In this document: in pieces, positions 9,441 through 63,680 of the stretch | Numbering within the stretch: position 1 is the stretch's first letter | Layout of the letters: the number at the start of each line of letters is the position of its first letter | DNA from: Candidatus Komeilibacteria bacterium | GTDB taxonomy: Bacteria > Patescibacteriota > Patescibacteriia > UBA1558 | Assembly (NCBI GenBank): GCA_048538235.1 | Contig: JBLYPX010000001.1 | Location: 136,013 to 200,012, forward strand | Reading direction: 5' to 3' | DNA: 64,000 bases | Made by a program: the position numbers and the translations under genes | Notes under the pieces: generated by a model | Databases searched by the model: none | The model's input: the letters and a program-made list of their open reading frames with translations, nothing else | What the model was told of the DNA's origin: nothing

Positions 9441-9488
9441 CAATGAAGAGATGGTGTTAAACACTATCTCTTTTCATTTTAAATCTAA

Positions 9489-10962: not shown

Positions 10963-11039
10963 GTGAATTTTCCACAAAAAAGCAGATGTTTACCTGTTTT
11001 TTTATTTGCTATATAATAATAACCACTTGTGTATAAAAA

Positions 11040-18974: not shown

Positions 18975-18983
18975 GGAGGAAAT

Positions 18984-20027: not shown

Positions 20028-20036
20028 GAGGGAAAT

Positions 20037-44825: not shown

Positions 44826-45428
44826 ATGTCTGAAGAATTAGATAATTTAGATTTGGAAGAAGATAAAACAGAGTCGTTTAAAGATTTTGTGTTTGAAATG
44901 ATCAAGGTTTTGGTTGTTTCTTTAATTATAATAGTTCCTATTAGAGCATATGTTGTGCAACCATTCTATGTTGATGGCGCTTCTATGGAACCAAATTTTC
45001 ACGATGGTGAATATTTAATAGTAGATGAGATAAGTTACAGGTTCAAAGATCCGCAAAGAGGAGATATAGTTATATTCCATCCACCAGACAATCCAAAGGT
45101 TTACTATATTAAAAGAATCATTGGCATGCCTAATGAGGTGGTAGATATTAAAAATGGAGAGATTAAAATTTATGAAAACGATTCGCCAGATCCATTAATT
45201 GTAGACGAATCTAAGTATTTAACAAAAGATTACTATTTAAGGCCAAGTGAAAAGTATCATGTTAAGTTAGGAGAAGGTGAGTACTATTTAATGGGAGATA
45301 ATCGTCCAAATAGTTTAGATTCAAGAAGATTAGGACCTATTAGTGAGTTACATATAAAGGGAAAGGTAGCTTTAAGAGCTTTTCCTTTCGATAAGTTTAC
45401 AGTTATTAAACCGCCAATTTACGAATAA
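44826..45428 (+). CDS. lepB: Signal peptidase I
   Basis: 'VDGASMEPNF' Ser box, 'GDIVIFHPP', 'KRIIGMPNE' Lys box and a 'GDNRPNSLDSR' box. Confidence 0.88.
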   Translation: MSEELDNLDLEEDKTESFKDFVFEMIKVLVVSLIIIVPIRAYVVQPFYVDGASMEPNFHDGEYLIVDEISYRFKDPQRGDIVIFHPPDNPKVYYIKRIIGMPNEVVDIKNGEIKIYENDSPDPLIVDESKYLTKDYYLRPSEKYHVKLGEGEYYLMGDNRPNSLDSRRLGPISELHIKGKVALRAFPFDKFTVIKPPIYE

Positions 45429-45438
45429 AATATATAAT

Positions 45439-46743
45439 ATGGTTAAAAAAGAGAAAAAAGCCTTTAAATTAATTAAGGGTATGAAGGATATAATGCCTTC
45501 AGATCAGAAGTATTGGGAATATCTACGTAAGACATTAAATAGATTAGCTTTTGACTATAACTATGATCGTATAGATACTCCAATGACAGAGTTTACAAAC
45601 CTTTTTAAAAGATCTGTTGGCGATCATACAGATATTGTGGAAAAGGAAATGTATTCATTTGAAGATTTGGGAGGAGAAAAGTTAAGTCTAAGGCCAGAAA
45701 TGACAGCTGGAGTGGTAAGAGCATATATTGAACACGGTATGGTTAATATGCCTCAGCCAGTTAAGATGTTTTATGTTGGTCCTTGTTTTAGATACGATAA
45801 ACCACAAGCTGGTAGACAAAGGCAGTTTTGGCAGATGGGTTTTGAAGCTATTGGTGATGCTGCTCCAGTGATTGATGCACAGGTTATTAATATGGGGTAT
45901 AAGCTATTAAGCAAGTTACATTTACCAGCAGTTGTTCAGATAAATAGTTTAGGCTGTAAAGAGTGTAGGCCAAATTACCATGAGGTGTTATTAGACTTTC
46001 TTAAGGGTAAAAAAAATCAATTGTGTGAGGATTGTAAGAGAAGAGTTAATAAAAACCCTTTAAGAGTATTAGATTGTAAGGAAGAATCATGTCAGGCAAT
46101 AATAGCTGATGCACCCCAACAGGTAGATTATCTGTGTGATGATTGTCGCACTCACTTTGTATCAGTTCTAGAATATTTAGATGAACTAGAAATTGTATAT
46201 AATTTAAACCCTAAGATTGTTAGAGGTTTAGATTATTATACTCGTACTTGTTTTGAATTTACTTTGCAGGATGCAGATGAAACAAGACAAGGTGTGCTAG
46301 GTGGTGGAGGTCGTTACGATGGACTCGTTGAAGAATTAGGTGGCAGACCAACACCAGCGGTTGGACTTGCTATGGGAGTGGAAAGAATAATTAAAGAATT
46401 AAAGAGATTAGATATTAAAGTTCCAGAAATAAAGCAGTATGAAGTTTTTGTAGCACAACTTGGTAAAGAAGCTCGTAAGAAATGTATTTCTCTATATGAA
46501 GAATTATTAGCTGAAGATTTAAAAGTTGTAGAGAATTTTTCTAAAGATGGAATTAAGAATCAACTAGAGCAGGCCAATAAATTAGGAGTAGTCTATTCTT
46601 TAATAATTGGTCAGAAGGAAATGGTAGATAATACTGTGCTTATTAGAGATATGGAAAACGGCATTCAAGAGACAGTGGACTTTGCCAAAGTGGTCTCAGC
46701 TCTTAAGAAAAGACTGAAGTCAAAAGAGGTAGAATCAGTATAA
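45439..46743 (+). CDS. hisS: Histidyl-tRNA synthetase
   Basis: Class II aaRS motifs, including 'FRYDKPQAGRQRQFWQ' and 'GGGGRYDGL', and an anticodon-binding C-terminal domain. Confidence 0.9.
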   Translation: MVKKEKKAFKLIKGMKDIMPSDQKYWEYLRKTLNRLAFDYNYDRIDTPMTEFTNLFKRSVGDHTDIVEKEMYSFEDLGGEKLSLRPEMTAGVVRAYIEHGMVNMPQPVKMFYVGPCFRYDKPQAGRQRQFWQMGFEAIGDAAPVIDAQVINMGYKLLSKLHLPAVVQINSLGCKECRPNYHEVLLDFLKGKKNQLCEDCKRRVNKNPLRVLDCKEESCQAIIADAPQQVDYLCDDCRTHFVSVLEYLDELEIVYNLNPKIVRGLDYYTRTCFEFTLQDADETRQGVLGGGGRYDGLVEELGGRPTPAVGLAMGVERIIKELKRLDIKVPEIKQYEVFVAQLGKEARKKCISLYEELLAEDLKVVENFSKDGIKNQLEQANKLGVVYSLIIGQKEMVDNTVLIRDMENGIQETVDFAKVVSALKKRLKSKEVESV

Positions 46744-46754
46744 TATATAGTCAA

Positions 46755-46800
46755 AAATAGTTTTGACAAAACTATTTATTTGTGTTAAATTATATTTGAA
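46755..46800 (+). promoter_or_regulatory. Perfect 11-1-11 palindrome AAATAGTTTTG-A-CAAAACTATTT embedding a TTGACA -35-like hexamer, followed 17 nt later by TAAATT; candidate rpsU promoter/operator or weak hisS terminator
   Basis: Exact reverse-complement arms at 46755-46765 and 46767-46777. The element lies between the hisS stop and the rpsU start. Confidence 0.35.
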
Positions 46801-46840
46801 TTTAATTATTAAACATTAATCAGATTGGGGGTGAAAACCT

Positions 46841-47089
46841 GTGTTAGAAGTTAAACGGAAACAAAGCGAAACATTTGAGAGTCTTTTACGTCGTTTTACT
46901 AAGAAAACAATACAGAGTGGAAAACTATTACAAGCAAAGAAAATTAGATTTCACCAGAAGGATAAATCTCCATTAGCTCGTAAAGAAGGGGCTTTAATGA
47001 GAGAAGAATTTCGTAAAAAACGAGATTATATGAGACGTATTGGTAAATTAGACGACTATTTAGACAAAAAGAAAAAAGGTAGAAGATAA
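46841..47089 (+). CDS. rpsU: 30S ribosomal protein S21 (probable GTG start)
   Basis: 'FESLLRRFTKKTIQSGKLLQAKKIRFHQKDKSPLARKEGA' matches the S21 family. GGGGGTGA SD upstream. Confidence 0.8.
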   Translation: MLEVKRKQSETFESLLRRFTKKTIQSGKLLQAKKIRFHQKDKSPLARKEGALMREEFRKKRDYMRRIGKLDDYLDKKKKGRR

Positions 47090-47535
47090 TGTCATTATTA
47101 CAACAAATAGATAAAGATAGATTAGAAGCAATGAAGGCTCAAGAAGAGCTTAAGTTGTCTACTCTTAGAATGCTATCTTCTTCTATTAAAAATGCTCAAA
47201 TTGCTAAGAAAGCAGAACTGACAGACGAGGAAGTATTAAAGGTTTTGCGAACTGAGAAAAAGAAGAGAATAGAAGCTGCTGAAGGCTTTACAAAAGGTGG
47301 CAAACCAGAATTAGCTGAGCAAGAAATGAAAGAATTAGGCTTTATTGAAGCTTATTTACCTAAAGCAATGTCAGAAGAAGAATTAAATGGCATTGTGTCT
47401 AAGGTTTTGTCAGAAGGTAATTTTACTGAAATGTCGCAGTTTGGACAGGCTATGGGCGCTGTTATGAAAGAAGTGGCAGGTCGGGCTGATGGACAGGCTG
47501 TACAAGCAAAAGTAAAAGAACTTTTGAATAAATAA
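47089..47535 (+). CDS. yqeY: GatB/YqeY domain protein
   Basis: YqeY-like helical protein, commonly encoded next to rpsU. Length 148 aa. Confidence 0.65.
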   Translation: MSLLQQIDKDRLEAMKAQEELKLSTLRMLSSSIKNAQIAKKAELTDEEVLKVLRTEKKKRIEAAEGFTKGGKPELAEQEMKELGFIEAYLPKAMSEEELNGIVSKVLSEGNFTEMSQFGQAMGAVMKEVAGRADGQAVQAKVKELLNK

Positions 47536-47564: not shown

Positions 47565-50486
47565 ATGCTTTTTTTAAAGCGTAAATACTTTATTAAAATG
47601 AGAACTGTTTTAGTGTTAGCTATGCTTTTTGTAACAGTTCTTTTTTTATTCCCTTCAGGTGTTTTAGCGTCAACAGACTTTGGTTTAGCTGATGCTAATC
47701 CAGGTTTAGGCGATACTGACTTAAAGCAAATTATAGTAAATATTATACAAATAGCATTAGGCTTTATTGGGCTTATTGCTGTTATTTTTATACTATATGC
47801 GGGTTTTGTTTGGATGACAGCTGGTGGGGCTGCAGATAAAGTAGATAAAGCTAAAAAAATATTAATAAGAGCAGCAATTGGATTAGTAATTGTATTATCC
47901 TCTTATGCTATAGCAACCTTTATATTTAATGCTATTGGTTGGTCAACTGGAATAGATATGGATGGAACTAGCAGGGATAGATCATATTATTATTCGGGTG
48001 GTTTAGCTGGCGGTGTTATTCAGTCTCATTATCCAGCTAGAGGAGCAACAGGTATTCCAAGAAATGTTTCTATTGTTGTTACTTTTAAAGAATCTATGGA
48101 TGCAGACTCTATCATCTCTGGCGGTCAGTTAACAGATAATATTACTATTGTAGATCAATTTGGAGATGAAGTAGCGGTTGCATCTGCTGAGACAGTGGAT
48201 AATTATTCCTTTTTAATAAACCCAACAGAGCCAGATTATTTAGGAACAGATGCAGATAATATTACCTATGTAGTAAGTTTGGGTTCAGGTATATTAAAGT
48301 CCAATGGAGATCCAGCTTTTGGCAATTTAGGTTCATATGAATGGCAATTTACAACCTCAACAGACTTAGATGTTTCTCCACCTAGAATAGTTTCTGTTTT
48401 ACCAGGGGATGCTAGTACTAATCCAAGAAATGCAGTTGTACAAATTAATTTTAATGAAGCAATTAATCCACTGAGTGTGGCTGGTGATACAGCCGATGGT
48501 TTTGATAATATTATTGCTAGTAATACAGATGGTACAGTTGTAATAAACGGTAAATATACTATTGCTAATGAGTATAAAACAGTTGAATTTTTAACAGATG
48601 ATTTATGTGGTACTAATTCTTGTGGCGGCGATGTATATTGTTTACCTGGTGCTGAGGAATTAGCCTTTAATGTTAAAGCTTCAACTTTAGAAGCAATTAT
48701 CTTTGATGGAGCTGTAGATATGGTTGGTAATTCTTTAGATGGTAATGCTGATGGTCAGGCTGAAGGTCCTGGCGTGGATGATTATGAATGGTCTTTTAAT
48801 ACAACAAATAATGTAGATTTAAGCCCACCTAGTGTTGTTTCTGTAACACCTGGAGTTTCTTCAAATAGTGTAAGCACAAGGGCTAATGTAAAAGTTTCTT
48901 TCGATAAATTAATGATGCTTTCTTCTTTAAACGCAGATTCTTTAATGATTGACCAAGGAGTTAATTATTGGATTAGTAGTACTAATAAAGAAAATCACAC
49001 AGAAAGCTATATTAAACATGATGAATTTGGTGAGTATGTAACATATAATCCACTAGTTACAAATGAGTGTAGAGATTTATACCAGAATTGTTTTAATCCA
49101 ACTTCTGGTCCTGGAGATTTTAGAATTGGTGGAGATGATACAGATAATACTTGGGCGGCCGGATCAAAACTTGGAGATATTAATGATACTCAAGTGCCCG
49201 GACAATTAAGATTAAATTTTAAAGGTGCAGATACTCCATATTTATGGGTAGCTAGGTCTAATTTAGATCAGGTTGTAAGGGTTAGTACAGCTGATGGTAG
49301 TATCACTGGTCCATATATAGTAGGAGATAATCCATCTAGAACATCTGTGGATTCTTATGGCAGAGTATGGGTAGCAAATAGGAATTCTAATGATATTACA
49401 GTTATTTTAACTGATGCGGAGGGAAATGAATTATTGAATGAAACCTTTTCAACTTCACCAGCTAATGGTCCAAGAGGTGTGGCTGTAGATATTAATAATG
49501 ATGTTTGGGTGGCAGGCGGGTGTTATGTAGTAAAGTTGAGTGGTCAAACAAATACTTTAGGAGACAGATTAACCTATTTAAATAAACAGGGTGGTTGTCG
49601 TGCTTATGGAGCGGTTATAGATCGTGATGGACGCTTATGGATACCAGATAGAAATACTGGTAGAGGTTCTGTAATAGATACAGAAACAGCTACAGTAATT
49701 GCTACACCTATGATTGGAAGAGTTGGTCAGTTGTATGGGATAACAGCTGATCCAGATGGAAATATTTGGGAGGCAAATTCGTGGGGTGCGTCAACAGTGT
49801 CAAAGGTTGATGGTTCAGATTATAGCTATGTTGAGTATAGTACTGGTGGTGGTGCACCAAGAGGTGTGGCTGTAGATAAGAATGGCAATATTTGGGTTAC
49901 GAATTGGAGCTTGAATAAAGTTGCGCATTTACGACCAGACGGTACTCTAATAGATCTCTATCCAACAGGTAGTGGGCCACTTGGTGTTTCAGCAGATGCG
50001 GATGGATATGTTTGGGTGGTGAATTATAGTGGTGGTGGACCAGCACCAAGAAACTATACTAATTGTTCTGGTGGAACAACTACAAAATATGATATGGAAG
50101 ATGGTACTCCTATTGGCACATATTGTGTTGGTGGCAATCCTTATACATATAGCGACATGACTGGTTTTGGCTACCAGAGTGTAGTAAAGGGATTAGTAAG
50201 TGGCGAGTGGACATCAAGTGCTATTGATTTGGAAGGTTTATCTAGTGTGGGTGGATTATTTATTCATGGTGATATCCCAGTTGGAGCGAGTGTTAAAATG
50301 CAGGCTAGAGGAGCTGGTTCACAAGCGGGTCTTGCTGAAACCACTTGGCAGGATGTTGCTAGTGATGGAACAGTTAGTATTACAAATGTTTCTTGGTTGC
50401 AGATAAAGCTAGAGCTGCAGTCTGTTCGTATCAATGTGACGCCATCAATAAATTATATAAGTATCAATAAAATAAGCTTAGAATAA
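47565..50486 (+). CDS. Giant surface protein 1 (973 aa): N-terminal T4SS-pilin-like (VirB2/TrbC-like) two-helix module, Ig-like domains, and a C-terminal six-bladed beta-propeller (Vgb-lyase/NHL-like repeats)
   Basis: Signal peptide ...VLA|STDFG. Hairpin helices 'IALGFIGLIAVIFILYAGFVWMTAGG' and 'AIGLVIVLSSYAIATFIF' separated by 'AADKVDKAKKILIR'. 'SPPRIVSV/ SPPSVVSV' Big-like domains. Repeats such as 'PRGVAVDxNGNIWVTN' and 'GITADPDGNIWEAN'. Start may be M at 47598. Confidence 0.65.
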   Translation: MLFLKRKYFIKMRTVLVLAMLFVTVLFLFPSGVLASTDFGLADANPGLGDTDLKQIIVNIIQIALGFIGLIAVIFILYAGFVWMTAGGAADKVDKAKKILIRAAIGLVIVLSSYAIATFIFNAIGWSTGIDMDGTSRDRSYYYSGGLAGGVIQSHYPARGATGIPRNVSIVVTFKESMDADSIISGGQLTDNITIVDQFGDEVAVASAETVDNYSFLINPTEPDYLGTDADNITYVVSLGSGILKSNGDPAFGNLGSYEWQFTTSTDLDVSPPRIVSVLPGDASTNPRNAVVQINFNEAINPLSVAGDTADGFDNIIASNTDGTVVINGKYTIANEYKTVEFLTDDLCGTNSCGGDVYCLPGAEELAFNVKASTLEAIIFDGAVDMVGNSLDGNADGQAEGPGVDDYEWSFNTTNNVDLSPPSVVSVTPGVSSNSVSTRANVKVSFDKLMMLSSLNADSLMIDQGVNYWISSTNKENHTESYIKHDEFGEYVTYNPLVTNECRDLYQNCFNPTSGPGDFRIGGDDTDNTWAAGSKLGDINDTQVPGQLRLNFKGADTPYLWVARSNLDQVVRVSTADGSITGPYIVGDNPSRTSVDSYGRVWVANRNSNDITVILTDAEGNELLNETFSTSPANGPRGVAVDINNDVWVAGGCYVVKLSGQTNTLGDRLTYLNKQGGCRAYGAVIDRDGRLWIPDRNTGRGSVIDTETATVIATPMIGRVGQLYGITADPDGNIWEANSWGASTVSKVDGSDYSYVEYSTGGGAPRGVAVDKNGNIWVTNWSLNKVAHLRPDGTLIDLYPTGSGPLGVSADADGYVWVVNYSGGGPAPRNYTNCSGGTTTKYDMEDGTPIGTYCVGGNPYTYSDMTGFGYQSVVKGLVSGEWTSSAIDLEGLSSVGGLFIHGDIPVGASVKMQARGAGSQAGLAETTWQDVASDGTVSITNVSWLQIKLELQSVRINVTPSINYISINKISLE

Positions 50487-53400
50487 TGAATAAACGTTAT
50501 TCAAAATATATAGTCCCAGTTATCACAATCATTTTATTAATGGTTCCTTTTGCTATATTCGCTTCTACAGATTTTGGTATATCTGATGTAGATGTTGGAC
50601 TAGGGGATAATGATGTAAAAAGTATTGCAACGAATATAATAAGTATAGTTTTAAGTTTTTTGGGTATTATTGCAGTTGGTTTTGTTATTTATGCTGGATT
50701 TCTATGGATGACAGCTGGTGGTAATGCAGACAGAGTAGATAAAGCTAAAAAGATTTTAATAAGAGCGGCTATTGGTATAGTTATTATTTTATCCTCTTAT
50801 GCAATTGCTAGTTTTGTAATAAGTAGTATTAGTGGTGCTACGGGCGATGGTACTGATGGAACGGGTGGTACAAATCCTCCAGGTGGTGGCTTTGGTGGAG
50901 GAGAAGCTAATTTAATTATTAGAAATTGGCAACCATATGATGGTGCTACTGGCACAGCTAGAAATATATTAGTAAGAGTATATTTTAATAAAACAATAGA
51001 CGCGTCTTCTGTAGCAAGTAGTGATTTTACTTTTACTAATACTTCAAATAATACAGCAGTTAATTTTAATGTTACTGTTGTTGGAAGTCGTATAGATATT
51101 CAACCTTTAATTGCTTGTGAGGTTGAAGGAGTGGATTATTGTTTAGGCAATACTCAGGGTTATACAGTAAGTGTAGCTAATGGTTCAATTACATCGCTTG
51201 ATAACAAAGATTTAGTATGTACTACTGGTTGTTCAACAGATTTTGTTACTAGTGATTATATTGATGTTATGCCACCAGTTGTTTCACTGGTTAACCCACA
51301 AGATAATGATACATTTTCTGTAGCTGCTAATGTACCAATTGAAGCCCAAGCAACGGATGATAGAGGTATGGTAGCAGCCCTAACATTTTTAGCAGACAAT
51401 GAAGAAGTTTTGCCAGAGGGCACAGATGGTGCTGAGCCTTGGTTAGGATTGTTTAGTACCGCTGCATATGATGAGGGGGATAGTATAGATATTAGTGCAG
51501 TAGCAGAAGATTTAAGTGGTAATATTGGCAGATCAGGGGCAGTAGATATTCGCATACTCCCTGAGCACTGTTTTAACCAAACTAAAGATGCTGATGAAAC
51601 AAATATAGATTGTGGTGGTTCTTGTGGAGCTTGTTTAGGGGAGAGTTGTAATAGTAGTTCGGGTGTAGATAGTTGTGAACCAAATGATGCCTTGTGTGGT
51701 CAGGGAGTGTGCAATTTAGATTGCATCTGTGCTTCAGCTCCAATAATAACAAATATATCTCCAGACAATGGTGCAGTTGGTAATTATATAACTATAATTG
51801 GCGAAGAATTTGGTAGTTCAACCGGTCAGGTTGTTTTCTTAGGCAGTGCTGATTTTGGCGATGAGATTGTCTCTTCATTAGCAGGTTGTGATACAGCATG
51901 GTCACCATGGCAAGTAATTGTTGAAGTTCCAGAAGGTGTAGTATCTGGGGGAATAAAGATAATTACGAATTCAGGAAGTTTTGACACCACTTTAGATGAT
52001 AGAGGTTGGCAAGGAGATTTTACACTAAACGAAACTGTTAGACCGGGTATTTGTGGAATTACACCAGAAGCTGGCACAGCTTTAAGTACTGTTGATATAG
52101 CTGGTACGCAGTTTGACGAAAGTAAAGACAGGGTTGTTATTGGTGGTGTTAGCGTTTCTAATTCAGATATATCTTTATGGTCAAATAATAATATCACTTC
52201 CTTGGTTCCAAATTTACAACAAGGGAAAGTATCTGTTGCAGTTGGTGTGGGAGATGAATTAAGTAATCCAGTTCAATATGAAGTTGTTCCAGATATATTA
52301 GTTCCATCTATATCATATATAGAGCCAGATAATGGACCAGTTGGTACATATATTACTATTCACGGAAATAATTTTGGGTATAATGAGTCAAATGTATTAG
52401 TTAATTTTGTTAATAATAGTACTACTATCCCAGCAGATATAGATTTCCCAGAAATGTGTGGAGATTACTCTGTGGAGAATACAGAGATTGTGGTTAAGGT
52501 TCCAGAGGGTGTTACTTTAGGATTATGGAATGTAGTTGTAAATAGAGATTTGAAAGATAGCCAACCAGCAAGTTTTGATGTTAATGAAGACGTGCTGTCT
52601 CCAGGTCTTTGTTTATTAGAGCCAAATAATGGTCCAGTTGGAACTATTATTGATGCTTATGGAGAAGGTTTTGGTTCAACTGGTCAGATTTCCTTTTTCG
52701 ATAATATAATAGCCGCTATTAGTAATTGGACAGGCATACATATTGGTTCTCAAGTTCCAGCAGCAGCTAGTACTGGTCCTGTACAAGTTACATCTGGATC
52801 TGGTGGAGTATCTAATTCAATTAATTTTGCAGTTGGTAGTTGTGATGCTAATAGTTGCTCAGTGGGTGATGAGTGTTGTTCAGATGGTATTTGTCGTGAA
52901 ATTGGCTTATGTGAACAATCTCTTGGTGCTGGTGAATATATTTGGTCATTTACAACTGGTCAACAATTACCACCATTTATAGTAGAAGAAGTTTGGCCAT
53001 TATGTGATGAAGCTTGTATTAATACAATGATCGGTGTGAAGTTTAGTAATCCAGTAGATTTAGAAAGTCTGACAGATATTAGCGTAGACGTTAAACAATG
53101 TACAGATGAGAATTGTTCAGCTTTTGTTACAGAAGTTGGTTATACAGAAAATGATGTACCAGTTGGCTATTATGATGACACAAACTATATCCTAAGCATT
53201 AACCCATCTGCAAATTTAGTGCCACAAACATATTATAGGGTGGTGCTTAAATCTGGATCATTAGGAATCGTTAACACAGAAGGTGGTTATTTAGAAAATA
53301 TGAATTATTCAAGTTCAGGTGGTGAGGTAGATAGTTATTCTTGGATTTTTAGAACAGGTGTTGATGAGTGTACTTTAGATAATGTAGAAGTTTTACCAGA

Positions 53401-56400
53401 TGAACGTACTATTACTTCTCAGGAAGAAAGATTAAATATGTCTGCTTATGCATATTCTGAGCCAGATGATTGCTCTCCTCGTGGTCAAATGCTTGATCCT
53501 GCAGAATTTGCTTGGACATGGCAATCTACAAATGTAGGTACAGCAACAGTAGCCGGAACTTTGAATGAGGGAATAGTAACTCCTATTTGGGGTCATCCAG
53601 CAGATGTAAGTATTATTTCTACAGCCGACGGTGTTAGTGGTAATGCTCAAATTACTGTAGATATGGATATTCCAAGAATAGATAATATATCTCCAGATAA
53701 TGGAATGATTCAGGCTGACTTAAAAACTTATGTAACTGTACATGGAGATAATTTTGGAGACGAGCAAGGTTCTACAGTTGTTCTAGTGGGTGGCATTGAG
53801 GCAAAGATTGCAGATTGTTCAAGTGCTTGGTCAAATACACAAATAGTAATTGAAATGCCATTATCTACTAGCACTGGAGATAGAATTAAAATAATAAAAA
53901 CAGGTGGGGATGATGAATCAGATCCTTTTACTGTTAATAGTATTATTCGTCCAGCGCTTTGTAGTATAGATCCAAATTATGGAATAGAGGGAACAAGCGT
54001 TACTCTAGAAGGATATAATTTTGGGGATACACAAAATGATGGCATGGTTTTCTTTGATCAATTAGGAGTAGATAGTATAAGTAGTTGGTCAAACACTAAG
54101 ATAAAAGCATCTGTACCAGCTAATGCTGCTACAGGTCCGGTTACAGTTAATGTGTTAGGCAATGATTCAAATTCATTAGTCTTTTCTTTAGAACCATATA
54201 TTAGTGGTCTAAATCCAGACAATGGAGCAGTAGATAGTTATGTCACAGTTTACGGTGGTAATTTTGGTGACGAGCAGGGTAGCGGTTATGTATTAATTGG
54301 TGGTCGAAGAGCATATCTTGCCCCATGTTTAGGCAGCTGGTCTAATACAAGTATTATTGTTCAAGTGCCAAGTAGTTTAAGTCTTGGTAATAGGAAGGTT
54401 CAAGTTATTACACATTATGGCATTGGTAGTAATGAGGTAAATTATGAGGTAAAAGATGTTCCAGCTAATCCACTATTATGTGAAGTTAATCCTAATTGGG
54501 CTGCTAATAATGAGCAGGTTGGTTTATTAGGAGATAATTTAGGTAGAGCTCCTCGTTTATCTGATCAAATAGAAGTAGATACAGATTTGGGAGCAAGTTA
54601 CACAAATTCTTCTGGTAATTCATGCATGAGTAATAATGGTTCATATGTAAGTGGTTGTTCAAATTATTGGGTTGAGTACCAGTTCAATTTTACAGATAGT
54701 AATTATTATAATGCTTGGGCAGAAACCAGTAATTATAGTACAGATTTAACGGATCAAAGTATTTACCACAACGTTAATATATATATTGATGGCACATACG
54801 CTGGTTATTTTAGTAATATAGCTTCCCTTGATCATCAGTTTGGTGGCGTAGATTTAGGTTGGGTAAATGCTGGTGTTCATACAATTAGATATTATTGGAC
54901 AAATGATTGGTGTGGTGGTTGTAGTAATGGAACGGGGGATTCAAATATTAGGATTTACAATGTTGGTATTAATACAGGAATACCAACTAGCTACCCAGTG
55001 TTTACAAGAAACTACACAGCTTCTACTGAGGGTTGGTCAAACAGTAGTGTGTTAACACGTATAGATAGTGAAATACAGTCTGGTCCAGTTTCTGTTATTA
55101 AAGAAGTGGTTACTGGCCAGCAGTGCGCTGGCTTCCATATTGGTAGTTGGTGTCCAGGAGGCGTTTATGAAGATATTACAGAGAATATTGAAAGTAATAG
55201 TGTAGATTTTAATAAAGGATGTGTAATTGGAACAACTTCATCTCGAGAAGAAAATTATATTCCAACTGTTGCTGCTAATAGCGAAGCTGTTGGTACATTA
55301 GCAACCGATGGTACATATATCTATGGTAAGAGTTGGAGTAGTTATGATGAGTATGATGTAGTTATATCTAAGATAGGTACTGGTTATAATAATACAGTAC
55401 TGGGAGAAGACTATGGAGATTTAGCAATAGTTTCTAGCAGTATTACCATGACTTATCATCCAGATGGTTATATATACAATGGTTATTCATCAGATGGTCA
55501 TAGTTTACAGCGTATAAATGTTGCTACTGGGGTTGTAGATAACAGTGTTGTGATTACAGATGGTTTATTAAACAGAAATACTGGTAATACTTATTCAGAG
55601 GCTAGGGGTGACAACTTAGTAACCTCAGACGGAACATATATATATAATTTAGCGTTTGGAACCCATGCTTGTCCAAATAATTATTCTAGTCGCTGTTATG
55701 ATGGATTTAAAGTAAGGGTATTTGATCCAATGAATAATTGGAAGTTAGTTAGAGAGTGGGAAACAACTACAAATGGATCTTTTTATACCGATGGTATTGT
55801 AGCTGATGGTAAATATATTTACGCCATTGAGTGGGGTGGTTTACATAGAATACGTATGATGGATATTCAGACTGGTGAATATATTGCTCAGTGGATATCT
55901 GAACAAGGCAGGCCAACTGGTCAGGGTAATGATATTATTTCTGGTCAGTATGATTGGGTTAATGACAGAATATGGCTAGGTGATTTGGTTGATCATAGTA
56001 GATATCCTGGCCCAGCTTATATATATAAATATACTAGCTGTCACGACTATGACGTGAATGACATTATAATAGAGGATGAAGGTTATTGTGGAGATGGACT
56101 CATTGCTTCAGGCGAAACTTGTGATGACGGCAATACTGTAAGCGGGGATGGCTGTTCTAATGTTTGTGAGATAGAATTAAGTGATCTTCAGGCAGATATT
56201 AATTATGAGGTTGGTTGGAAATATTGGAGTAGTAATAATTGGGTCCATGTAGATTTTAGAGATACATATTCAAATCCAGTTTTGATACTAAGTCCAGTTA
56301 AACACGAAGGTGGTGACACTGCTACCTTTAGAATAAAGAATTTATCTAGTTCTGGTTTTGATTTTAGATTACAAGAATCTAATAGTCATGATGATCCTCA

Positions 56401-59400
56401 TTGTTGTGATAAAGAAGTCTATTATTTTGTAGCTGAAGCAGGTGTTTATCAATTAGAAGGCGGTATAACAATTGAAGCTATGAATACTGTTCTTGATTCA
56501 GTTACACCAAATTATACTCAGCTTCCTTATGATATTGAATTTACAGAAGTTCCTACAACATTATCTCAGGTAATTACAAGTGGTGATGGCAATGATCCTA
56601 ATTTTGATCCAAAAGGAACTATTAATTATATAAAGACAAGACAGAATAATGTTTCGGCTAATAGTTTTTATATTGCTTTAGAAACAGACACTACTTATTC
56701 AACTCATGTACCAGAAACAGTAAGTTGGTTAGCCATAACTCAAACAGATGGCAATTTAAATAATAGTTTATTTGAATCAAAAACTATTAATAATCTTATT
56801 AATAATGACACTTCAAATATTACTTTTGATAATTCTTTTGCTAGACCAACATTTTTTGCAAATAGTTTAACTATAAATGATCCAGCTCCTGGTGTTTTAC
56901 GATGGATAGCTCTAGAACCTACATCGGTTGGTGTGCGTTTTGAGAATGATGACAGTTCTATTCACGCAACTCCAGAAGATATTAATTATTTAGTTATTAA
57001 TCTACCCGAGAATATTGATCCACCAGCACCAGATACATGTGGTAATGGCGAAATTGAAGCTGGTGAAACTTGTGATAGTTGTCCAGACGATGTTGGCGAA
57101 TGTAGTGATAGTGATTTGTGTGGAAACTTTAGTTTAGACACTGGTGAAGCTTGTGATATTAGTGAAGTTGGTGATCCAATATTAGGTGGACAGACTTGTG
57201 ATTCTTTAGAAGGTTTTTCTGGTGGTAACTTAGATTGTTCTGTGAATTGTGAATTAATAACAGATGCATGTGTTATTGGTAATCCAGCAAGTAATATTTG
57301 TTTAAACACAGAGATATCTGCTGAATTTGATTCATTAATGGATCAAAGTAGCTTTGCCGGTAATGTTCATTTTGAAAAGGTCACTAATACTTGTGAGACA
57401 GGTTCAAATATTGGCAATGCGTGTGATACAGACGAAGATTGTGGTGATGGTGTTTGTGATCTAGATGTAGTAGTTAGTTATGATTTAGAGAATTTGCCAC
57501 CAAATGATTCTCAATACTCAAAGTTATATATATATCCAGAAAATGGTCTATTAGATATTAATTCTGAATACAGAGCAACAGTAAGGGGTGGAACTAGTGG
57601 TGTTCAAGATATTGAAGGTTATACTTTAGCTGCGGATTATGTTTGGCCATTCTATACTGGAGATACAGAGTGTTTAATAAGTAGAGTGGAAATTGAACCA
57701 AGTAGTTATCAATTTAATAGTGCAGATGAAATAGTTAACTTCACAGTTCATGGATATGATGAAAATGGTATTTCTGTTATAGGAGATTATTCATGGAGTA
57801 TTCAAGGTAATGCAGATTTATTAAATATAGTTGGAGGAAATACCCAGACTGTACAAGTTTCCCCAACAGATACTGGTAATGGTGAGTTAAGTTTAGAAGC
57901 TAGTGTATATGCTAGCGAAGATTCACAAGGTGTGGCTCAAGCTCCAATAGATATATTTATGTGTAATATACCGTGGAATTATGAGAATAAAACATATAAC
58001 TTTAAGACAAGATATTGTAGGGGTGAAGGTGTAAACCATGTATATAATAGTGGTTTTGAAATGGATGATAACAGCGACTTAAGACCAGATGTTTGGTTTG
58101 ATGATATCTATGATGAAGATTGGCAGGATATTTCTTTAGTAAGTTCAGATTTAGAAGGTGGTGGAAATTATGCTGTGCAAATAAATAATTTACAGGACGA
58201 TCGTTCTGTAGGAGATAGAACAGGTATTGCTTCAGGAATAATAGATGTTAAAGATGCTATCTATACTTTATCTGCTCAGATTAAGGGTGAAACTAATGGT
58301 CAATTAGCATATTTTGGTCTTAAATTTATGAATGAAAATGGTCAGGCACTTGGCGGAAACGGTGGCTACCATTATCCAGTACTTAACCACGCTTCAATAT
58401 CTGATGAATGGACATTGTATAGTGCTAGTTTTAGGCCATCTGAATTATTTACTGGTACTGAGAAGGTTCAGGTTGTATTTATTCTTGCAGGTAGTGATGA
58501 ATTAGATAAACATGTAGCCTGGATAGATAATGTTCAATTAGAGTTAGGTTCAGAAGTTAGTGTTTATGAAGAATCTAATTTATTACCATCATTAAATATA
58601 TCTCCAGATGCTGCTTCTGGTGATGAGCTGCTAAATAGATTGTTCTTACAATCTGACTACAATATTCCAGATGCCATTGGTTTAAGAGTGTTTACTAACT
58701 TTGAACACCAAGCACCAATTGTTTGGTATCAAGATAATGTTACGAATATTGGTAATCCAGCTACTATAGATGTTGGCGGTTATTCAGCATTACAAGAGGG
58801 TAGAACAACTTATGTGAATGCTGCTAATAATAGTAGTAATAATATTTATACAAACATATTTGTTTTGTCATATACAGATGGTGCTAATGCAACTACGCAA
58901 GATATATTTACTCAGATGTACGAGAATTGGACGTTCAATAGTAATATAGATTCATATTATGAGAAACAACAACTCGCTAGAGACACAAAACGTTTTGAGA
59001 ATATTGTTCAAATGTCTGAGCAATTAGACGATTATTATCAATTAAATGGTGGTTATCCTCAATTACAGGCAGGGACATATTTAGCTGGTACAACAGTTTC
59101 TGTTTGGGATTCTTGGAACGCTACTTTTGGTGCAGAGCTTGGTGGTGTGCCAGTAGATCCAATCAATGAACATGGATTATGTAATGGTGCATACGATCCA
59201 ATAACCTGTTGGAATCCAGACGATTTGCGTTATGTTTGCCCATTAAACTCCTATGTTTACAGATATGACTATGTAAATTCGGATTATTATCTATATAGTA
59301 ATTTTGAATATGAAGGGGTTGTTTGGAAGGGAGATTTTGATTTGACCATAGCTAGTAATCCGCAGTGCGATAATGTAATTTTAAACAATGGTGTTATGTC

Positions 59401-59431
59401 TTCCATTTCTCCAGCACAAAATATTGAATAA
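50486..59431 (+). CDS. Giant surface protein 2 (2981 aa): paralogous T4SS-pilin-like N-terminal module, at least 8 IPT/TIG domains, Myxococcus-type Cys-rich repeats, beta-rich regions and a CBM4/9-like domain
   Basis: N-terminus about 65% identical to the upstream protein. IPT/TIG consensus 'P.I..I.PDNG.VG.YITI.G.NFG' recurs at least 8 times. 'CGDGLIASGETCDDGNTVSGDGCSNVCE' and 'CGNGEIEAGETCDSC...' Cys repeats. 'FEMDDNSD...GNYAVQI...VAWIDNVQLE' carbohydrate-binding-module-like jelly roll. Confidence 0.65.
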   Translation: MNKRYSKYIVPVITIILLMVPFAIFASTDFGISDVDVGLGDNDVKSIATNIISIVLSFLGIIAVGFVIYAGFLWMTAGGNADRVDKAKKILIRAAIGIVIILSSYAIASFVISSISGATGDGTDGTGGTNPPGGGFGGGEANLIIRNWQPYDGATGTARNILVRVYFNKTIDASSVASSDFTFTNTSNNTAVNFNVTVVGSRIDIQPLIACEVEGVDYCLGNTQGYTVSVANGSITSLDNKDLVCTTGCSTDFVTSDYIDVMPPVVSLVNPQDNDTFSVAANVPIEAQATDDRGMVAALTFLADNEEVLPEGTDGAEPWLGLFSTAAYDEGDSIDISAVAEDLSGNIGRSGAVDIRILPEHCFNQTKDADETNIDCGGSCGACLGESCNSSSGVDSCEPNDALCGQGVCNLDCICASAPIITNISPDNGAVGNYITIIGEEFGSSTGQVVFLGSADFGDEIVSSLAGCDTAWSPWQVIVEVPEGVVSGGIKIITNSGSFDTTLDDRGWQGDFTLNETVRPGICGITPEAGTALSTVDIAGTQFDESKDRVVIGGVSVSNSDISLWSNNNITSLVPNLQQGKVSVAVGVGDELSNPVQYEVVPDILVPSISYIEPDNGPVGTYITIHGNNFGYNESNVLVNFVNNSTTIPADIDFPEMCGDYSVENTEIVVKVPEGVTLGLWNVVVNRDLKDSQPASFDVNEDVLSPGLCLLEPNNGPVGTIIDAYGEGFGSTGQISFFDNIIAAISNWTGIHIGSQVPAAASTGPVQVTSGSGGVSNSINFAVGSCDANSCSVGDECCSDGICREIGLCEQSLGAGEYIWSFTTGQQLPPFIVEEVWPLCDEACINTMIGVKFSNPVDLESLTDISVDVKQCTDENCSAFVTEVGYTENDVPVGYYDDTNYILSINPSANLVPQTYYRVVLKSGSLGIVNTEGGYLENMNYSSSGGEVDSYSWIFRTGVDECTLDNVEVLPDERTITSQEERLNMSAYAYSEPDDCSPRGQMLDPAEFAWTWQSTNVGTATVAGTLNEGIVTPIWGHPADVSIISTADGVSGNAQITVDMDIPRIDNISPDNGMIQADLKTYVTVHGDNFGDEQGSTVVLVGGIEAKIADCSSAWSNTQIVIEMPLSTSTGDRIKIIKTGGDDESDPFTVNSIIRPALCSIDPNYGIEGTSVTLEGYNFGDTQNDGMVFFDQLGVDSISSWSNTKIKASVPANAATGPVTVNVLGNDSNSLVFSLEPYISGLNPDNGAVDSYVTVYGGNFGDEQGSGYVLIGGRRAYLAPCLGSWSNTSIIVQVPSSLSLGNRKVQVITHYGIGSNEVNYEVKDVPANPLLCEVNPNWAANNEQVGLLGDNLGRAPRLSDQIEVDTDLGASYTNSSGNSCMSNNGSYVSGCSNYWVEYQFNFTDSNYYNAWAETSNYSTDLTDQSIYHNVNIYIDGTYAGYFSNIASLDHQFGGVDLGWVNAGVHTIRYYWTNDWCGGCSNGTGDSNIRIYNVGINTGIPTSYPVFTRNYTASTEGWSNSSVLTRIDSEIQSGPVSVIKEVVTGQQCAGFHIGSWCPGGVYEDITENIESNSVDFNKGCVIGTTSSREENYIPTVAANSEAVGTLATDGTYIYGKSWSSYDEYDVVISKIGTGYNNTVLGEDYGDLAIVSSSITMTYHPDGYIYNGYSSDGHSLQRINVATGVVDNSVVITDGLLNRNTGNTYSEARGDNLVTSDGTYIYNLAFGTHACPNNYSSRCYDGFKVRVFDPMNNWKLVREWETTTNGSFYTDGIVADGKYIYAIEWGGLHRIRMMDIQTGEYIAQWISEQGRPTGQGNDIISGQYDWVNDRIWLGDLVDHSRYPGPAYIYKYTSCHDYDVNDIIIEDEGYCGDGLIASGETCDDGNTVSGDGCSNVCEIELSDLQADINYEVGWKYWSSNNWVHVDFRDTYSNPVLILSPVKHEGGDTATFRIKNLSSSGFDFRLQESNSHDDPHCCDKEVYYFVAEAGVYQLEGGITIEAMNTVLDSVTPNYTQLPYDIEFTEVPTTLSQVITSGDGNDPNFDPKGTINYIKTRQNNVSANSFYIALETDTTYSTHVPETVSWLAITQTDGNLNNSLFESKTINNLINNDTSNITFDNSFARPTFFANSLTINDPAPGVLRWIALEPTSVGVRFENDDSSIHATPEDINYLVINLPENIDPPAPDTCGNGEIEAGETCDSCPDDVGECSDSDLCGNFSLDTGEACDISEVGDPILGGQTCDSLEGFSGGNLDCSVNCELITDACVIGNPASNICLNTEISAEFDSLMDQSSFAGNVHFEKVTNTCETGSNIGNACDTDEDCGDGVCDLDVVVSYDLENLPPNDSQYSKLYIYPENGLLDINSEYRATVRGGTSGVQDIEGYTLAADYVWPFYTGDTECLISRVEIEPSSYQFNSADEIVNFTVHGYDENGISVIGDYSWSIQGNADLLNIVGGNTQTVQVSPTDTGNGELSLEASVYASEDSQGVAQAPIDIFMCNIPWNYENKTYNFKTRYCRGEGVNHVYNSGFEMDDNSDLRPDVWFDDIYDEDWQDISLVSSDLEGGGNYAVQINNLQDDRSVGDRTGIASGIIDVKDAIYTLSAQIKGETNGQLAYFGLKFMNENGQALGGNGGYHYPVLNHASISDEWTLYSASFRPSELFTGTEKVQVVFILAGSDELDKHVAWIDNVQLELGSEVSVYEESNLLPSLNISPDAASGDELLNRLFLQSDYNIPDAIGLRVFTNFEHQAPIVWYQDNVTNIGNPATIDVGGYSALQEGRTTYVNAANNSSNNIYTNIFVLSYTDGANATTQDIFTQMYENWTFNSNIDSYYEKQQLARDTKRFENIVQMSEQLDDYYQLNGGYPQLQAGTYLAGTTVSVWDSWNATFGAELGGVPVDPINEHGLCNGAYDPITCWNPDDLRYVCPLNSYVYRYDYVNSDYYLYSNFEYEGVVWKGDFDLTIASNPQCDNVILNNGVMSSISPAQNIE

Positions 59432-59488: not shown

Positions 59489-62400
59489 ATGAAAAGAAAA
59501 ATTATTACAATTATGACTGTTATGGCATTTATTTTTACTTTAATGCCACAATCATATGTTAGTGCTCAAACAATCGATCAGTGTGAGCAAGTTTTAGCAT
59601 CAGGACAACCAGAATTGTCTACTTGGGAAGATGATGCAGGAGCAACGCCTGCTAATAATTTTTATTTCATGGATAAACTGGGTGACTGGATAAAGCTCAG
59701 ACTTTTTTCTTTTACCAAGGATGCAAGAATTAATACTTTGTTAGATCAGGCACAAGAAAGAGTAGGCGAGCTTGAACGTTTACAGAGGCAGAACAATCTT
59801 AAACCTAGTTATGTTAATAGAATTGTAGATAGCTACAATAATATTATGGCAGAAGTTAGTACGAGATTATCTAATATGCAGGGCGATGGTGTAGATATGA
59901 CAGATATAATCTCTAGAGTAACAATACTAAGTGCTAAAAATAAAACTATTATAGCTGGTATTTTATCTAAGGTTTCTGCACAGAACTATAATACAATACA
60001 GTCTGCATATAATCAGTCTGGTACAGCGTTTTGTGAAGTTGTAGATAGTTGGGTTTCAAGAGAGAATCAATGTAATGATACTATTCTATTAACACAAGAG
60101 AGTTCTAATTCATTTAATAATATTGCAGGCGAGATAGCCAATGTTGGAGAAACAAGTTCTTCAATAGAAAGTTCATTTGAACAAGTTAGTTCGTATTTAG
60201 ATAGAGTGGAAAATATTAGTGTAGATATAAATAATAGTAAAGAAGATTTTAGTGGAGCTGTTAGTAGTTCTAGTTTGAGCTTAAGTGATAAAGAACAAGT
60301 ATTAAATGATAAGCTAGATGATTTTAGAGGGGATTATTTTTACCTTTTAAATAATCAACCTCAAGTAGATACTGCTATTAGATCTATCATAAGCTATAGA
60401 TTAAACGACAACCCTAGAAGTTTAGTTGCAAGAGCTAGGGCTAGCGCTGCTTTAATGGATGTTGCTTTAAACAATGCAGAAGTGGGAGCAGACATTGCAT
60501 ATATTGAAAATATAATGTCTGTTAATCTGTCTGAAGATAAAGATTTAAATGATTTATTAGATAATTTAAAGTCTGCAAAAGAAAGTAGTTTGCAAACTGA
60601 AATAAATACGCTATCTTCATTAGTTTCTTCACAACAGGATGAAATTGAAGCATTAGAAGAAAGTAAAAATGTCTGTAGGAGTTTAAAGAACGATTTTTCA
60701 GAAATATTAGACAGGTTAGATACTGGAAGATTTTCTCAGGCTAGAAATGGTGTCTTAGCTTTACAAGCTGAAGCTAGTAATTTAAATAGCACATATTTAC
60801 CAGCTTGTGGAATGATGCCAGTTATAGACACTCTTTATGATATTCTAATTAATGGTAATGCTTTGGACCCAAATAATAGTTGTAGTAGTCAATCATATAT
60901 AGATAATTATGTAGCTGAGATAGTTGCTTGGGGAGAGGATCGTTTAGCATTATGGGATACAATGTTAGATCAACACGATGGTATTGTAGATGAATTGAAC
61001 AGTCAACTAGATTCATATGAAATGATAAGTGTAAATAAGGGATCAGTTGCAACAAGTTTAGATTCACACTTTTCTTCCTATGCAAATGTTAATGCTGCAC
61101 AAGTTTCTTCAGCTGAATTAGATAGCATTCAAACTGAAATAGGAGATTTAGAAAGAAGATTAAATTCGGCTGAATCAGATGTGGTGGATTATGAAGGATA
61201 TAAGAATAATGCTAATGCGTCTTTACAGGTTGCTAATAGTTCATATGTTGAAGCGCAAACAGCTGTAAGTAAGGCAGAGTCAGAATTGCAAACAGCAGAT
61301 ACTAATGTGAAGCAGGCACAAGCCGCAGCAGATCAAGCAAGAGCAGATTACCTAAAAATAGAACAATCTTTAAATGAACTTAATACAATTAAAAACAGTA
61401 CATTATCTGAATTAAACGCTGCTAAAGATTCGCTTGATGCATTAAATACAGAAAAAGTTGATTTAGAGAAACAGATTGATACTTTAAAAGTTTCTTTAAA
61501 TAATAATTTTAGTATAGCTTCTATTAATCAAGATAACTTTCAATTGGAAGAAGAAATCTTATTGGACCTATCTGAAGATATTAATTTTGATAGAAGTGCA
61601 GTTGAACTAGAGGCTTTAGATGCAGAATTAAAAAATTTAAATGAAGACATAGTGTTAAAATCTGCAGAAGTAGATCAATTACAGTCAAATTACGACAAGG
61701 TGTTAGCAGACTATAATTCTACTTTAACAGAATACAATAATAAAGAAGACGATGTGGTTCAGGCAGATTTTGGAGTATATGCAACTACGCAGGTTTATAC
61801 ACAAAAAGAAAGTGCATATAATTCTGCAGTATCTGGTTTGAATACAATCTCTAACAATTTAAATAGTCTTCAAGCTAGTTATGATGCAGCTGTATCAGAT
61901 TATACAGAAGCTGTTGTTTTAAGAGATATTATTAGTAGTGATTTAGATAATAAGAATAATGAGTATAATAATGCGGTTGCTAAAGCTGTGAAACTTGAAG
62001 TTATTAGACAGGAACTAGATTCGTTCATTACAGATAAATTTGATAGCACAGTCAGTAATTATAGAACTAGCGTTGATTCTTTAGGAGTTTTAAACAATGA
62101 TTGGAAAACTGTTGCCTTTGAATATAATGAAATAGCAGATAATATTGCAGACTTAAGAACTACTATGAATGGAACAAATCTTGCTAATATTAGAACTGAG
62201 CTTAATAGCATGAAGACATTAGCGGGCAACTTGGAAACTATGGTTGAATATAATATGCCAGCTCAACAAATTAGTAATCAATTAGATACAATAGATAGAT
62301 TAGTAAGTATGAGAATGCTTGGACAAGCTAGGATAGATAATATCAAAGCATCGGTTCAAACGAGTGTGGTAAATTTACAGAATATTACTTGTTCCGAAGC

Positions 62401-62936: not shown

Positions 62937-63680
62937 ATGTTTGAAGATTTACAATCAGATCAACAGGCTGGTGTACCAAAACCAGAACCAGTAAATACAC
63001 CTAAACAGCCACCAATGGCGCCAAAGCCAGAACAGGCAGGGGAGATAGAAGACATCTTAGCAGATGTTGATTCTTCAGCTCCTTCAGTAACTCCAAAACA
63101 ACCTCCAATGCCAGCACAGCCTCCTGTGCAAGATATTGGTCCAGCTCAACCTTTAACAGATTTACCAGGCGCTGAAGTAATGGATAAGAGTAAACGTTCA
63201 GGCGGATCAAAGAAATTATTCTATTTAGTTGGAATTGTTGTGGTAGCCGCTATCGTTATTATTGGTGTTATCAAATTCACTTCTTCTGCAAGTTATGATG
63301 AGTATGAAAACTTTGTAACAGAGCCAGTTGTTAATAATCAAGTAACAGATAATACAGAAGATACAACCGAGCCAGAAGTAATAGATGAGCCAGAAGTTGT
63401 TGATGAGGTTGTAGAAAAAGATATAGTAGATGATGATGGCGATGGTATAACTAATGAACAAGAATTAGCAATTGGAACCGATCCATTTAATCCAGATAGT
63501 GATAATGATGGTTTATTTGATAAAGAAGAGGTGGTAACTTATGGAACAGATCCACTAAATGAAGACTCAGATGGCGATGGATATTTAGATGGTGCTGAAG
63601 TAAAAGCAGGATATAATCCAAGCGGCCCAGGCGAATTATTGAAATTACCACCATTAGATAATGGAACAAATAATAATTAA
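62937..63680 (+). CDS. Bitopic membrane protein: Pro-rich N-terminal region, one TM helix, acidic linker, thrombospondin type-3-like Ca-binding repeats
   Basis: PKQPPM repeats. TM 'LFYLVGIVVVAAIVIIGVI'. 'DDDGDGITNEQE...DPFNPDSDNDGLFDKEE...DPLNEDSDGDGYLDGAE' are Dx[DN]xDGxxD motifs. Confidence 0.55.
   Translation: MFEDLQSDQQAGVPKPEPVNTPKQPPMAPKPEQAGEIEDILADVDSSAPSVTPKQPPMPAQPPVQDIGPAQPLTDLPGAEVMDKSKRSGGSKKLFYLVGIVVVAAIVIIGVIKFTSSASYDEYENFVTEPVVNNQVTDNTEDTTEPEVIDEPEVVDEVVEKDIVDDDGDGITNEQELAIGTDPFNPDSDNDGLFDKEEVVTYGTDPLNEDSDGDGYLDGAEVKAGYNPSGPGELLKLPPLDNGTNNN

Follow-up and report, generated by a model that had tools for sequence, protein, structure and literature searches.

Two adjacent genes that share a VirB2-like pilin hairpin form an old, syntenic unit in Parcubacteria-group Patescibacteria

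Two consecutive genes for large proteins share an N-terminal module

We analyzed a 64-kb stretch of contig JBLYPX010000001.1 from a Candidatus Komeilibacteria bacterium, an organism placed in the Patescibacteria group, Parcubacteria group, by the NCBI taxonomy; this whole stretch is referred to as the window. The subject of this work is a pair of consecutive plus-strand genes, here called A and B, whose products begin with the same short module, a VirB2-like pilin hairpin, and continue into long C-terminal regions, which we call the cargo. Gene A (47565-50486, plus strand) encodes 973 residues arranged as a signal peptide, the pilin hairpin, three Big_5 immunoglobulin-like (Ig-like) domains, a beta-propeller, and a C-terminal beta-sandwich, as indicated by the open reading frame (ORF), by Pfam matches to Big_5, Vgb_lyase/NHL/SGL, and T4SS_pilin, and by an AlphaFold2 (AF2) model with a mean predicted local distance difference test score (pLDDT) of 76.5. 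Gene B (50486-59431, plus strand) encodes 2981 residues, in which the signal peptide and the pilin hairpin are followed by Big_5, Big_7, six TIG domains, a variable middle, and a conserved distal domain (Pfam matches of its ORF to TIG, with E = 1.9e-42 and six stretches, and to Big_5, Big_7, T4SS_pilin, and DUF4215). In the sequence TAATG (50484-50488, plus strand), the last base of the A stop codon is also the first base of the B start codon, and an overlap of 1 or 4 bases is also present at the related loci L001, L003, L005, and L006; judged from these overlapping codons, translation of the two genes may be coupled.

A BLASTP comparison aligned A and B with 155 bits (E = 1e-41), and residues 36 to 125 of A are 67 to 68% identical to residues 27 to 116 of B, with 72.6% identity at the DNA level. 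The module itself covers residues 36 to 129 of A (47670-47951, plus strand) and residues 27 to 120 of B (50564-50845, plus strand), which scored 150 and 136 bits, respectively, against a hidden Markov model (HMM) of the module. It is preceded in both proteins by a signal peptide, read from the sequence at residues 1 to 35 of A (47565-47669, plus strand; helix 4-27 in the model) and residues 1 to 26 of B (50486-50563, plus strand), with putative cleavage at VLA / STDFG in A and at IFA / STDFG in B. The preliminary description of this DNA had pointed to a duplicated N-terminal cassette that is recognizable at the DNA level, and this holds: the strings it quoted are present and align, at 68% identity in protein and 72.6% in DNA, and the HMM copies lie inside the ranges that it gave. 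Its statement that everything downstream is unrelated was too strong, since the first Big_5 Ig-like domain follows at the same position in both proteins and this stretch alone retains 26% identity (E = 1e-7), with no similarity between A and B past about residue 285. Given that the Big_5 stretch can be aligned between the two proteins, the ancestral duplicated unit included the first Ig domain.

Only two copies of the module occur in the 64-kb window, with no silent cassettes, even at relaxed thresholds (E up to 10). The longest exact run shared by the two copies measures 18 nucleotides (nt) (47840-47857 and 50734-50751), while the maximum among 53 comparisons between different genomes of matched GC content, which served as a reference, was 17 nt. 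The same codon is used at 38 of the 61 identical residues, compared with 30.8 expected (z = 1.95), or at 36 compared with 31.2 expected when Met and Trp are left out (z = 1.3). Thus, the DNA identity of the two modules in the window is barely above the expectation from protein conservation and codon bias, and the nucleotide alignment of the two 5' ends that had been suggested as a check on cassette shuffling yields an identity about as high as selection and codon bias predict.

The module is a VirB2-like pilin hairpin

Read from the N terminus, the sequence passes from the signal peptide through an acidic stretch into a first hydrophobic helix, which is connected by a short loop and Lys/Arg-rich residues to a second one. 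In the AF2 model of A, the two helices span residues 53 to 84 and 90 to 123 and are separated by the loop AGGAA(DK), and a model of the module alone is a helical hairpin with pLDDT values of 85 to 94. Both copies pass the gathering threshold of the type IV secretion system (T4SS) pilin family T4SS_pilin (PF18895; 26.6 bits), with 34.1 bits for A and 28.5 bits for B. The earlier proposal of an export or anchoring module of surface proteins is therefore borne out in a more specific form, the module being a VirB2-like pilin hairpin according to PF18895 and AF2.

The module family is large, with 32,317 representative clusters matched at E up to 0.001, and takes the form of free pilins, multi-module proteins, and N-terminal fusions of up to 4605 residues. 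Free pilins of 113 to 152 residues are 43 to 64% identical to the module of A, so that the 67% identity between the A and B modules is only slightly above the family background. The pilin motifs Y.GF.WMTAGG and K..KAKK.L..A.IGL are retained in the module. With 973 and 2981 residues, A and B do not fit the size of a small, free-standing pilin (about 100 to 150 residues); they contain a pilin domain without being pilins as usually understood. Within the same family, proteins with 2 to 17 tandem modules per chain were also seen (P0121-P0128 and others), one example of 1775 residues having 17 matched stretches. At locus L087, positions 8351-11729 hold six consecutive T4SS_pilin genes for proteins of 422, 110, 139, 121, 121, and 125 residues, one of which is a free pilin relative of the module, and no T4SS machinery was detected within 10 kb of this array.

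VirB2-like pilins and pilin arrays of Patescibacteria have been described previously (Quinonero-Coronel et al. 2025, PMC12102498; Wang et al. 2023, PMC10633639). According to this literature, VirB2-like pilins occur in 1948 Patescibacteria assemblies, the pilin arrays comprise 2 to 11 pilins with an average identity of 25% and a maximum of 54%, the T4SS of Patescibacteria is related to the conjugation systems of monoderm bacteria, and one genetically tractable cultured Patescibacteria species cannot grow epibiotically without its T4SS and pilin genes. Since the published pilins lie near virB4 in 1135 of the 1948 assemblies, proximity to T4SS genes is not strictly defining for PF18895 pilins. 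The A and B modules belong to the same domain family (above the Pfam threshold), come from the same phylum, and are likewise encoded by genes in tandem. However, the published pilins are small, free, and often near virB4, whereas the modules described here are the N termini of proteins of 973 and 2981 residues; and in contrast to the low identities within the arrays, the A and B modules are 67% identical and lie behind rpsU-yqeY with no T4SS gene nearby. While the domain family of the module and the pilin arrays are known already, the literature searched does not mention pilin modules fused to large cargo. Giant cargo carried on an N-terminal pilin module appears to be undescribed there, as do an A-B unit conserved behind rpsU-yqeY and the concerted evolution, restricted to the module, that is reported below.

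The cargo consists of domains typical of extracellular proteins

The cargo of A starts with the Big_5 Ig-like region (about residues 150 to 530; 48012-49154, plus strand; Pfam Big_5, E = 1.3e-21, three stretches), whose first 350 to 400 residues are conserved and colinear in all 73 A orthologues found in other genomes (see below). It is followed by the beta-propeller (about residues 534 to 860) and the C-terminal beta-sandwich (residues 881 to 971), together at 49164-50477 on the plus strand (Pfam Vgb_lyase, SGL, and NHL). The propeller and the beta-sandwich are a lineage-specific addition, present in 3 to 5 of the 73 orthologues and absent from versions of 641 to 642 residues. In a Foldseek search, the best match for the cargo of A was 1L0Q, an archaeal S-layer protein with a YVTN propeller and a PKD domain (E = 2e-16); this likeness fits a surface-exposed protein, although it is a resemblance of fold only, and the anchor and the organism differ.

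In B, the conserved Ig-like stalk (residues 126 to 1025, with Big_5, Big_7, and TIG domains according to Pfam; 50861-53560, plus strand) is covered in 52 to 73 of the 73 B orthologues, whereas the following lineage-specific middle (residues 1026 to 2685; 53561-58540, plus strand) is covered in only 0 to 22 of them. B also carries DUF4215 cysteine-rich repeats. A conserved distal domain (about residues 2695 to 2945; 58568-59320, plus strand) is found in 58 of the 73 B orthologues; it contains cysteines and features the motif YP.L.SG.F..G.S.S.WPSW...LG..LP.DP.N...C...TCW....F.CP..S..Y.Y. While this domain forms the extreme C terminus in the window, 700 to 1300 further residues follow it elsewhere (for example, at L048 7988-8776). 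It has no Pfam match and no relative in the PDB by sequence, and a possible likeness to the head domain of type IV pilins or GspG found no support in these searches. The cargo domains of both proteins are all typical of extracellular proteins.

The A-B pair is an old and fixed feature of the Parcubacteria group

In a scan of species-representative genomes, relatives were encoded in at least 576 stretches, and the analysis covered 80 loci. At 74 of these 80 loci, a small pilin-Big_5 gene (508 to 1000 residues) lies directly 5' of a giant pilin-fused gene; the giant B-type genes commonly encode 2000 to 3600 residues or are cut by the end of the contig. The pair loci come from Komeilibacteria, Uhrbacteria, Falkowbacteria, and other metagenome-assembled genomes of the Parcubacteria group, covering several candidate phyla. 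The surroundings are conserved as well: lepB, hisS, rpsU, and yqeY, which lie upstream of A in the window (44826-47535, plus strand; Pfam), are found upstream of A at 61 to 64 of 73 loci, and five other Komeilibacteria genomes show the identical order of mfd-pth-der-lytR followed by lepB-hisS-rpsU-yqeY-A-B, with A orthologues that are 53 to 72% identical.

The sole variant of this arrangement is an extra free pilin gene (125 to 171 residues, with the same module) between A and B at four loci (L038 8735-9247, L062 11725-12132, L067 11884-12282, and L079 7065-7439). At two further loci, the hairpin of B is so strongly diverged that it was missed by the module HMM (L010 11573-16519 and L012 11508-16532), but a signal peptide and two hydrophobic helices with a basic loop are still recognizable in these B proteins.

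The assignment of the cargo is equally stable. The cargo of A gave a colinear match to every A orthologue (73 of 73) and to no B orthologue (0 of 73), and the cargo of B matched every B orthologue (73 of 73) and no A orthologue (0 of 73). The differences in cargo between species are gains and losses of domains inside an orthologue, namely, in the propeller of A and the middle of B. The comparison of orthologous loci that the preliminary description had suggested, looking for different cargo behind the same module, thus revealed such within-orthologue changes only and no swap between A and B. A 23-mer specific to B, used to look for other strains of the species, had no match in metagenome contigs, and the exact sequence of protein A, 100% identical to a protein from a Candidatus Komeilibacteria metagenome-assembled genome, has one member on a single contig. 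Across the genomes compared, the A-B pair is an old, fixed, syntenic feature and not a shuffling locus.

The modules evolve in concert, and the cargo does not

Module similarity is higher between A and B within a genome than between genomes, even among orthologues: identity is 0.60 for A-B pairs from the same genome, compared with 0.46 for A-B, 0.47 for A-A, and 0.48 for B-B pairs across genomes. Likewise, the B module of the same genome is the closest B for 36 of the 74 A modules, compared with about one expected by chance. This pattern is restricted to the module. In the adjacent Big_5 stretch (160 residues downstream), the B of the same genome is the best match in 3 of 74 cases, with a median rank of 27, and A/B identity drops to background at the 3' edge of the module. 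Base composition can be ruled out as the source of the same-genome similarity, since GC-matched module pairs from different genomes have an identity of 0.48 and the effect is missing from the neighboring Big_5 stretch.

The same signal appears in the DNA. Identical codons are used 1.18 times as often as expected within genomes (z = 10), compared with 1.02 to 1.07 times between GC-matched genomes, and for the 11 genomes with a module identity of 75% or more, the ratio is 1.40. Exact runs shared by the A and B modules reach 80 nt at L030, 70 nt at L081, 49 nt at L023, and 47 nt at L084, with runs of more than 20 nt in 17 genomes, whereas the cross-genome maximum is 17 nt. Taken together, the results on identity, closest B, codon use, exact runs, and the module edge show gene conversion in short tracts that is confined to the module and happened at different times in different lineages. 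The clearest recent conversion tracts are those at L030 10067/11831 (80 nt) and L081 10208/11774 (70 nt).

In a tree of the Komeilibacteria modules, both paralogues of four genomes are separated from both paralogues of two others with a bootstrap of 100%. Within the three-species clade to which the window belongs, the A modules form one group (74%) and the B modules another (84%), each separate, from which it follows that the last homogenization in this clade predates those species. Recombination thus homogenizes the module and leaves the cargo in place, in events that are rare on the timescale of species divergence. Accordingly, of the earlier suggestion that the module is a substrate for homologous recombination, the recombination itself stands in the relatives, as seen from the tracts of 47 to 80 nt and the same-genome similarity, while the exchange of cargo that was to result from it was not found.

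Non-reciprocal transfer between paralogous stretches is well known from tufA/tufB gene conversion and from the antigenic variation of pilE/pilS in Neisseria. The A-B modules resemble both in that the transfer is non-reciprocal and takes place between paralogues within a genome. They differ in that conversion here homogenizes a conserved anchoring module instead of diversifying an exposed one, and in that silent cassettes are absent.

Proposed function and alternative explanations

To our knowledge, the majority of Patescibacteria have not been cultured, and little has been learned about their attachment to hosts except in Saccharibacteria. For the pair described here, we regard as likely the explanation, taken as a whole, that A and B are an ancient, vertically inherited unit of surface proteins carried by pilin hairpins, whose modules are alike by descent, selection, and conversion. 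The unit would descend vertically in Parcubacteria-group Patescibacteria, and each protein would consist of a cleavable signal peptide and a hairpin of two hydrophobic helices with a short Lys/Arg-rich loop, followed by its cargo. By the positive-inside rule, the loop is predicted to be cytoplasmic and both ends of the hairpin to point outward; because the basic loop would then lie inside, the second helix would act as a signal-anchor and the whole C-terminal cargo would stand outside the cell. The cargo exposed in this way would be the Ig-like domains and the propeller in A and a stalk of roughly 2850 residues of Ig/TIG and further domains in B. As for the likeness of the modules, they probably descend, together with the first Big_5 domain, from one ancestral copy, are held under strong purifying selection, and are subject to episodic short-tract gene conversion limited to the module, the last detectable homogenization in the genome of the window being old. 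Of this explanation, the identity of the domains, the structure of the hairpin, the synteny, the orthology of the cargo, the likeness of modules from the same genome, and the conversion tracts of relatives are results of the analysis, while the topology, the display at the surface, adhesion, and a link to a pilus or T4SS are inferred.

Most likely, the hairpins would make A and B part of the pool of pilins that serves the VirB2-like pilus system of Patescibacteria, and, as minor, terminal, or basal subunits, the two proteins might present adhesive domains to a host cell. Since the sequence motifs of free pilins are kept, the module probably does more than anchor, and on balance we favor a tie to the pilin system over a bare anchor. 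A similar logic is known from PilB and PilC of Streptococcus sanguinis, which are modular type IV pilins with an adhesive module of a few hundred residues grafted onto the C terminus of the pilin. A and B likewise combine a pilin module with a C-terminal functional module. However, PilB and PilC belong to the type IV pilin class, which is unrelated to VirB2-like pilins, and their grafts do not reach thousands of residues.

Several observations weigh against this reading. No T4SS gene (VirB4, VirB6, VirD4, and others) is present in the 64-kb window, where the pair sits among housekeeping genes, nor within 10 kb of the pair in the five related Komeilibacteria genomes; this lack and the size of the cargo weaken the tie to a pilin system. 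With 850 to 2850 residues of cargo per subunit, the proteins are unfit to be the major subunit of a helical pilus, so that any incorporation would have to be rare or terminal. The existence of proteins with 2 to 17 modules suggests that the hairpin can act as a mere membrane element. The similarity to the TrbC/VirB2 pilins of Gram-negative T4SS (PF04956) is also limited: although both have a signal peptide followed by two hydrophobic helices around a short basic loop, and the modules cover the whole profile (E = 2-3e-4), their scores of 21.2 and 22.0 bits are below the threshold of 27.9 bits, no solved pilin was matched by fold or sequence, and the proteins described here come from a monoderm and carry giant C-terminal cargo. 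A match to the NCBIfam Mbov_0395 pilin-like family likewise stayed under its cutoff. A Foldseek search of the hairpin against the PDB gave a best E of 0.5 with no VirB2/TraA or other pilin in the top 50, and a profile search of PDB sequences returned only spurious matches and no VirB2/TraA, although both searches say little about a VirB2 fold because a two-helix hairpin is too simple to discriminate. Finally, the synonymous excess in the window is not significant (z = 1.3 to 1.95), so that the case for conversion rests on the relatives and on protein-level patterns.

These points bring into play the alternative that the hairpin is only a membrane anchor, that A and B are tethered surface fibrils with no tie to pilins or a T4SS, and that the likeness of their modules stems from common descent and neutral conversion between nearby direct repeats. 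The absence of T4SS genes near the pair in six Komeilibacteria loci or in the window, a cargo far too large for a filament subunit, the multi-module proteins, and the fold and PDB searches that did not return VirB2 all agree with it. Yet an anchor would need hydrophobicity only, whereas the pilin motifs are kept along with 43 to 64% identity to free pilins, the PF18895 threshold is passed, and the A-A identity of 0.47 across candidate phyla is high for a transmembrane anchor; we therefore consider a plain anchor a plausible explanation, but not a likely one. Another, rather unlikely idea is that of modular VirB2-type pilins, in which the Patescibacterial T4SS pilus machinery takes up the hairpins and holds the giant adhesins at the tip or base of a conjugative-type pilus, with repeated conversion and parallel substitutions selected for a common fit of both hairpins to the evolving filament or assembly platform. 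A further possibility concerns the likeness of the modules alone, namely, that they co-evolve as proteins without DNA exchange, contacting each other or a common fast-evolving partner that selects for matching substitutions. It would explain why A and B in the clade of the window share genome-private residues that are mostly encoded by different codons (at column 114, for instance, Ala/Ala, Val/Val, and Ser/Ser in three species), why private states common to both modules number 2.33 in matched pairs and 0.67 in mismatched ones, small counts though these are, and why the synonymous excess in the window is not significant. However, the exact tracts of 30 to 80 nt and the synonymous ratio of 1.40 in the most similar pairs indicate real DNA transfer in several lineages, and both processes can act together; as the sole cause, co-evolution is unlikely.

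Two alternatives remain. The preliminary description had likened the locus to contingency or polymorphic surface-protein loci: by recombining at their shared 5' modules, the two genes would trade the C-terminal domains on display and so vary the cell surface. In favor of this, two direct repeats of about 280 nt lie at the 5' ends of adjacent surface-protein genes, relatives show recombination between the modules, and species differ in the propeller of A and in the middle of B. Against this, the arrangement is fixed in 74 genomes with no A/B cargo swap in 73 comparisons, the window has two copies only and no silent cassettes, with a longest identical run of 18 nt, and the A and B modules are reciprocally monophyletic in the three closest species; moreover, if direct repeats recombined by crossing over, the cargo of A would be lost, not exchanged. 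The preliminary description had itself named a fixed, syntenic pair without signs of exchange, with nucleotide identity no higher than purifying selection on the protein gives, as the pattern that would speak against shuffling. This is largely what the window presents, apart from the exchange within the module that occurs in relatives; a contingency locus is very improbable. Least probable of all is a recent tandem duplication in the genome of the window followed by fast 3' divergence: the genes are adjacent, in the same orientation, and similar at their 5' ends, but orthologues of both genes with the same cargo exist in 73 other genomes from several candidate phyla, which rules it out.

For the original idea of shuffling, the outcome is mostly deflationary, as the locus does not generate variation. 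The explanation that we prefer, an ancient unit of surface proteins on pilin hairpins, makes A and B concrete candidates for attachment proteins, in a unit that is conserved behind a ribosomal-protein gene across several candidate phyla. The module-restricted concerted evolution would be a hint that the two hairpins work together. If the modular VirB2-type pilins proposed above were real, much of the Parcubacteria group would share them as a device for attachment to hosts.

Gene neighborhood and further features of the window

Upstream of the pair in the window, mfd, pth, der, and lytR lie on the minus strand and are followed on the plus strand by lepB, hisS, rpsU, and yqeY (Pfam). Because the gap between yqeY and A is only 29 nt, rpsU-yqeY-A-B may form one transcript. 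Scans for promoters and terminators returned matches in the window that are no commoner than in shuffled sequence; the best sigma-70-like match on the plus strand, a hint only, is located before rpsU at 46763-46791 (TTGACA, 17 nt, TAAATT, with an upstream TG). On the 3' side, B is followed by a gene for a DUF5667/coiled-coil/DUF4215 protein of 1142 residues (59489-62917) and by one for a bacterial TSP3-repeat protein of 247 residues (62937-63680), and a DUF5667 protein is also encoded 3' of B at L001. These two downstream proteins may be part of the same surface apparatus as A and B.

The remaining genes of the window include those for ABC transporters and glycosyltransferases, parA/parB, relA/spoT, topA, and a Mur ligase. 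GC content in this AT-rich window lies between 0.28 and 0.42. The upper value was found at 18001-20000 (0.42, compared with 0.30 to 0.36 on either side), where three consecutive ORFs of 356, 347, and 274 residues (17904-20861) have no Pfam match, and the same is true of a fourth ORF at 17171-17863. The first ORF of this group of three combines a signal peptide with beta-rich sequence, and a lipoprotein-like LIGC box occurs in the second; this region may be acquired DNA.

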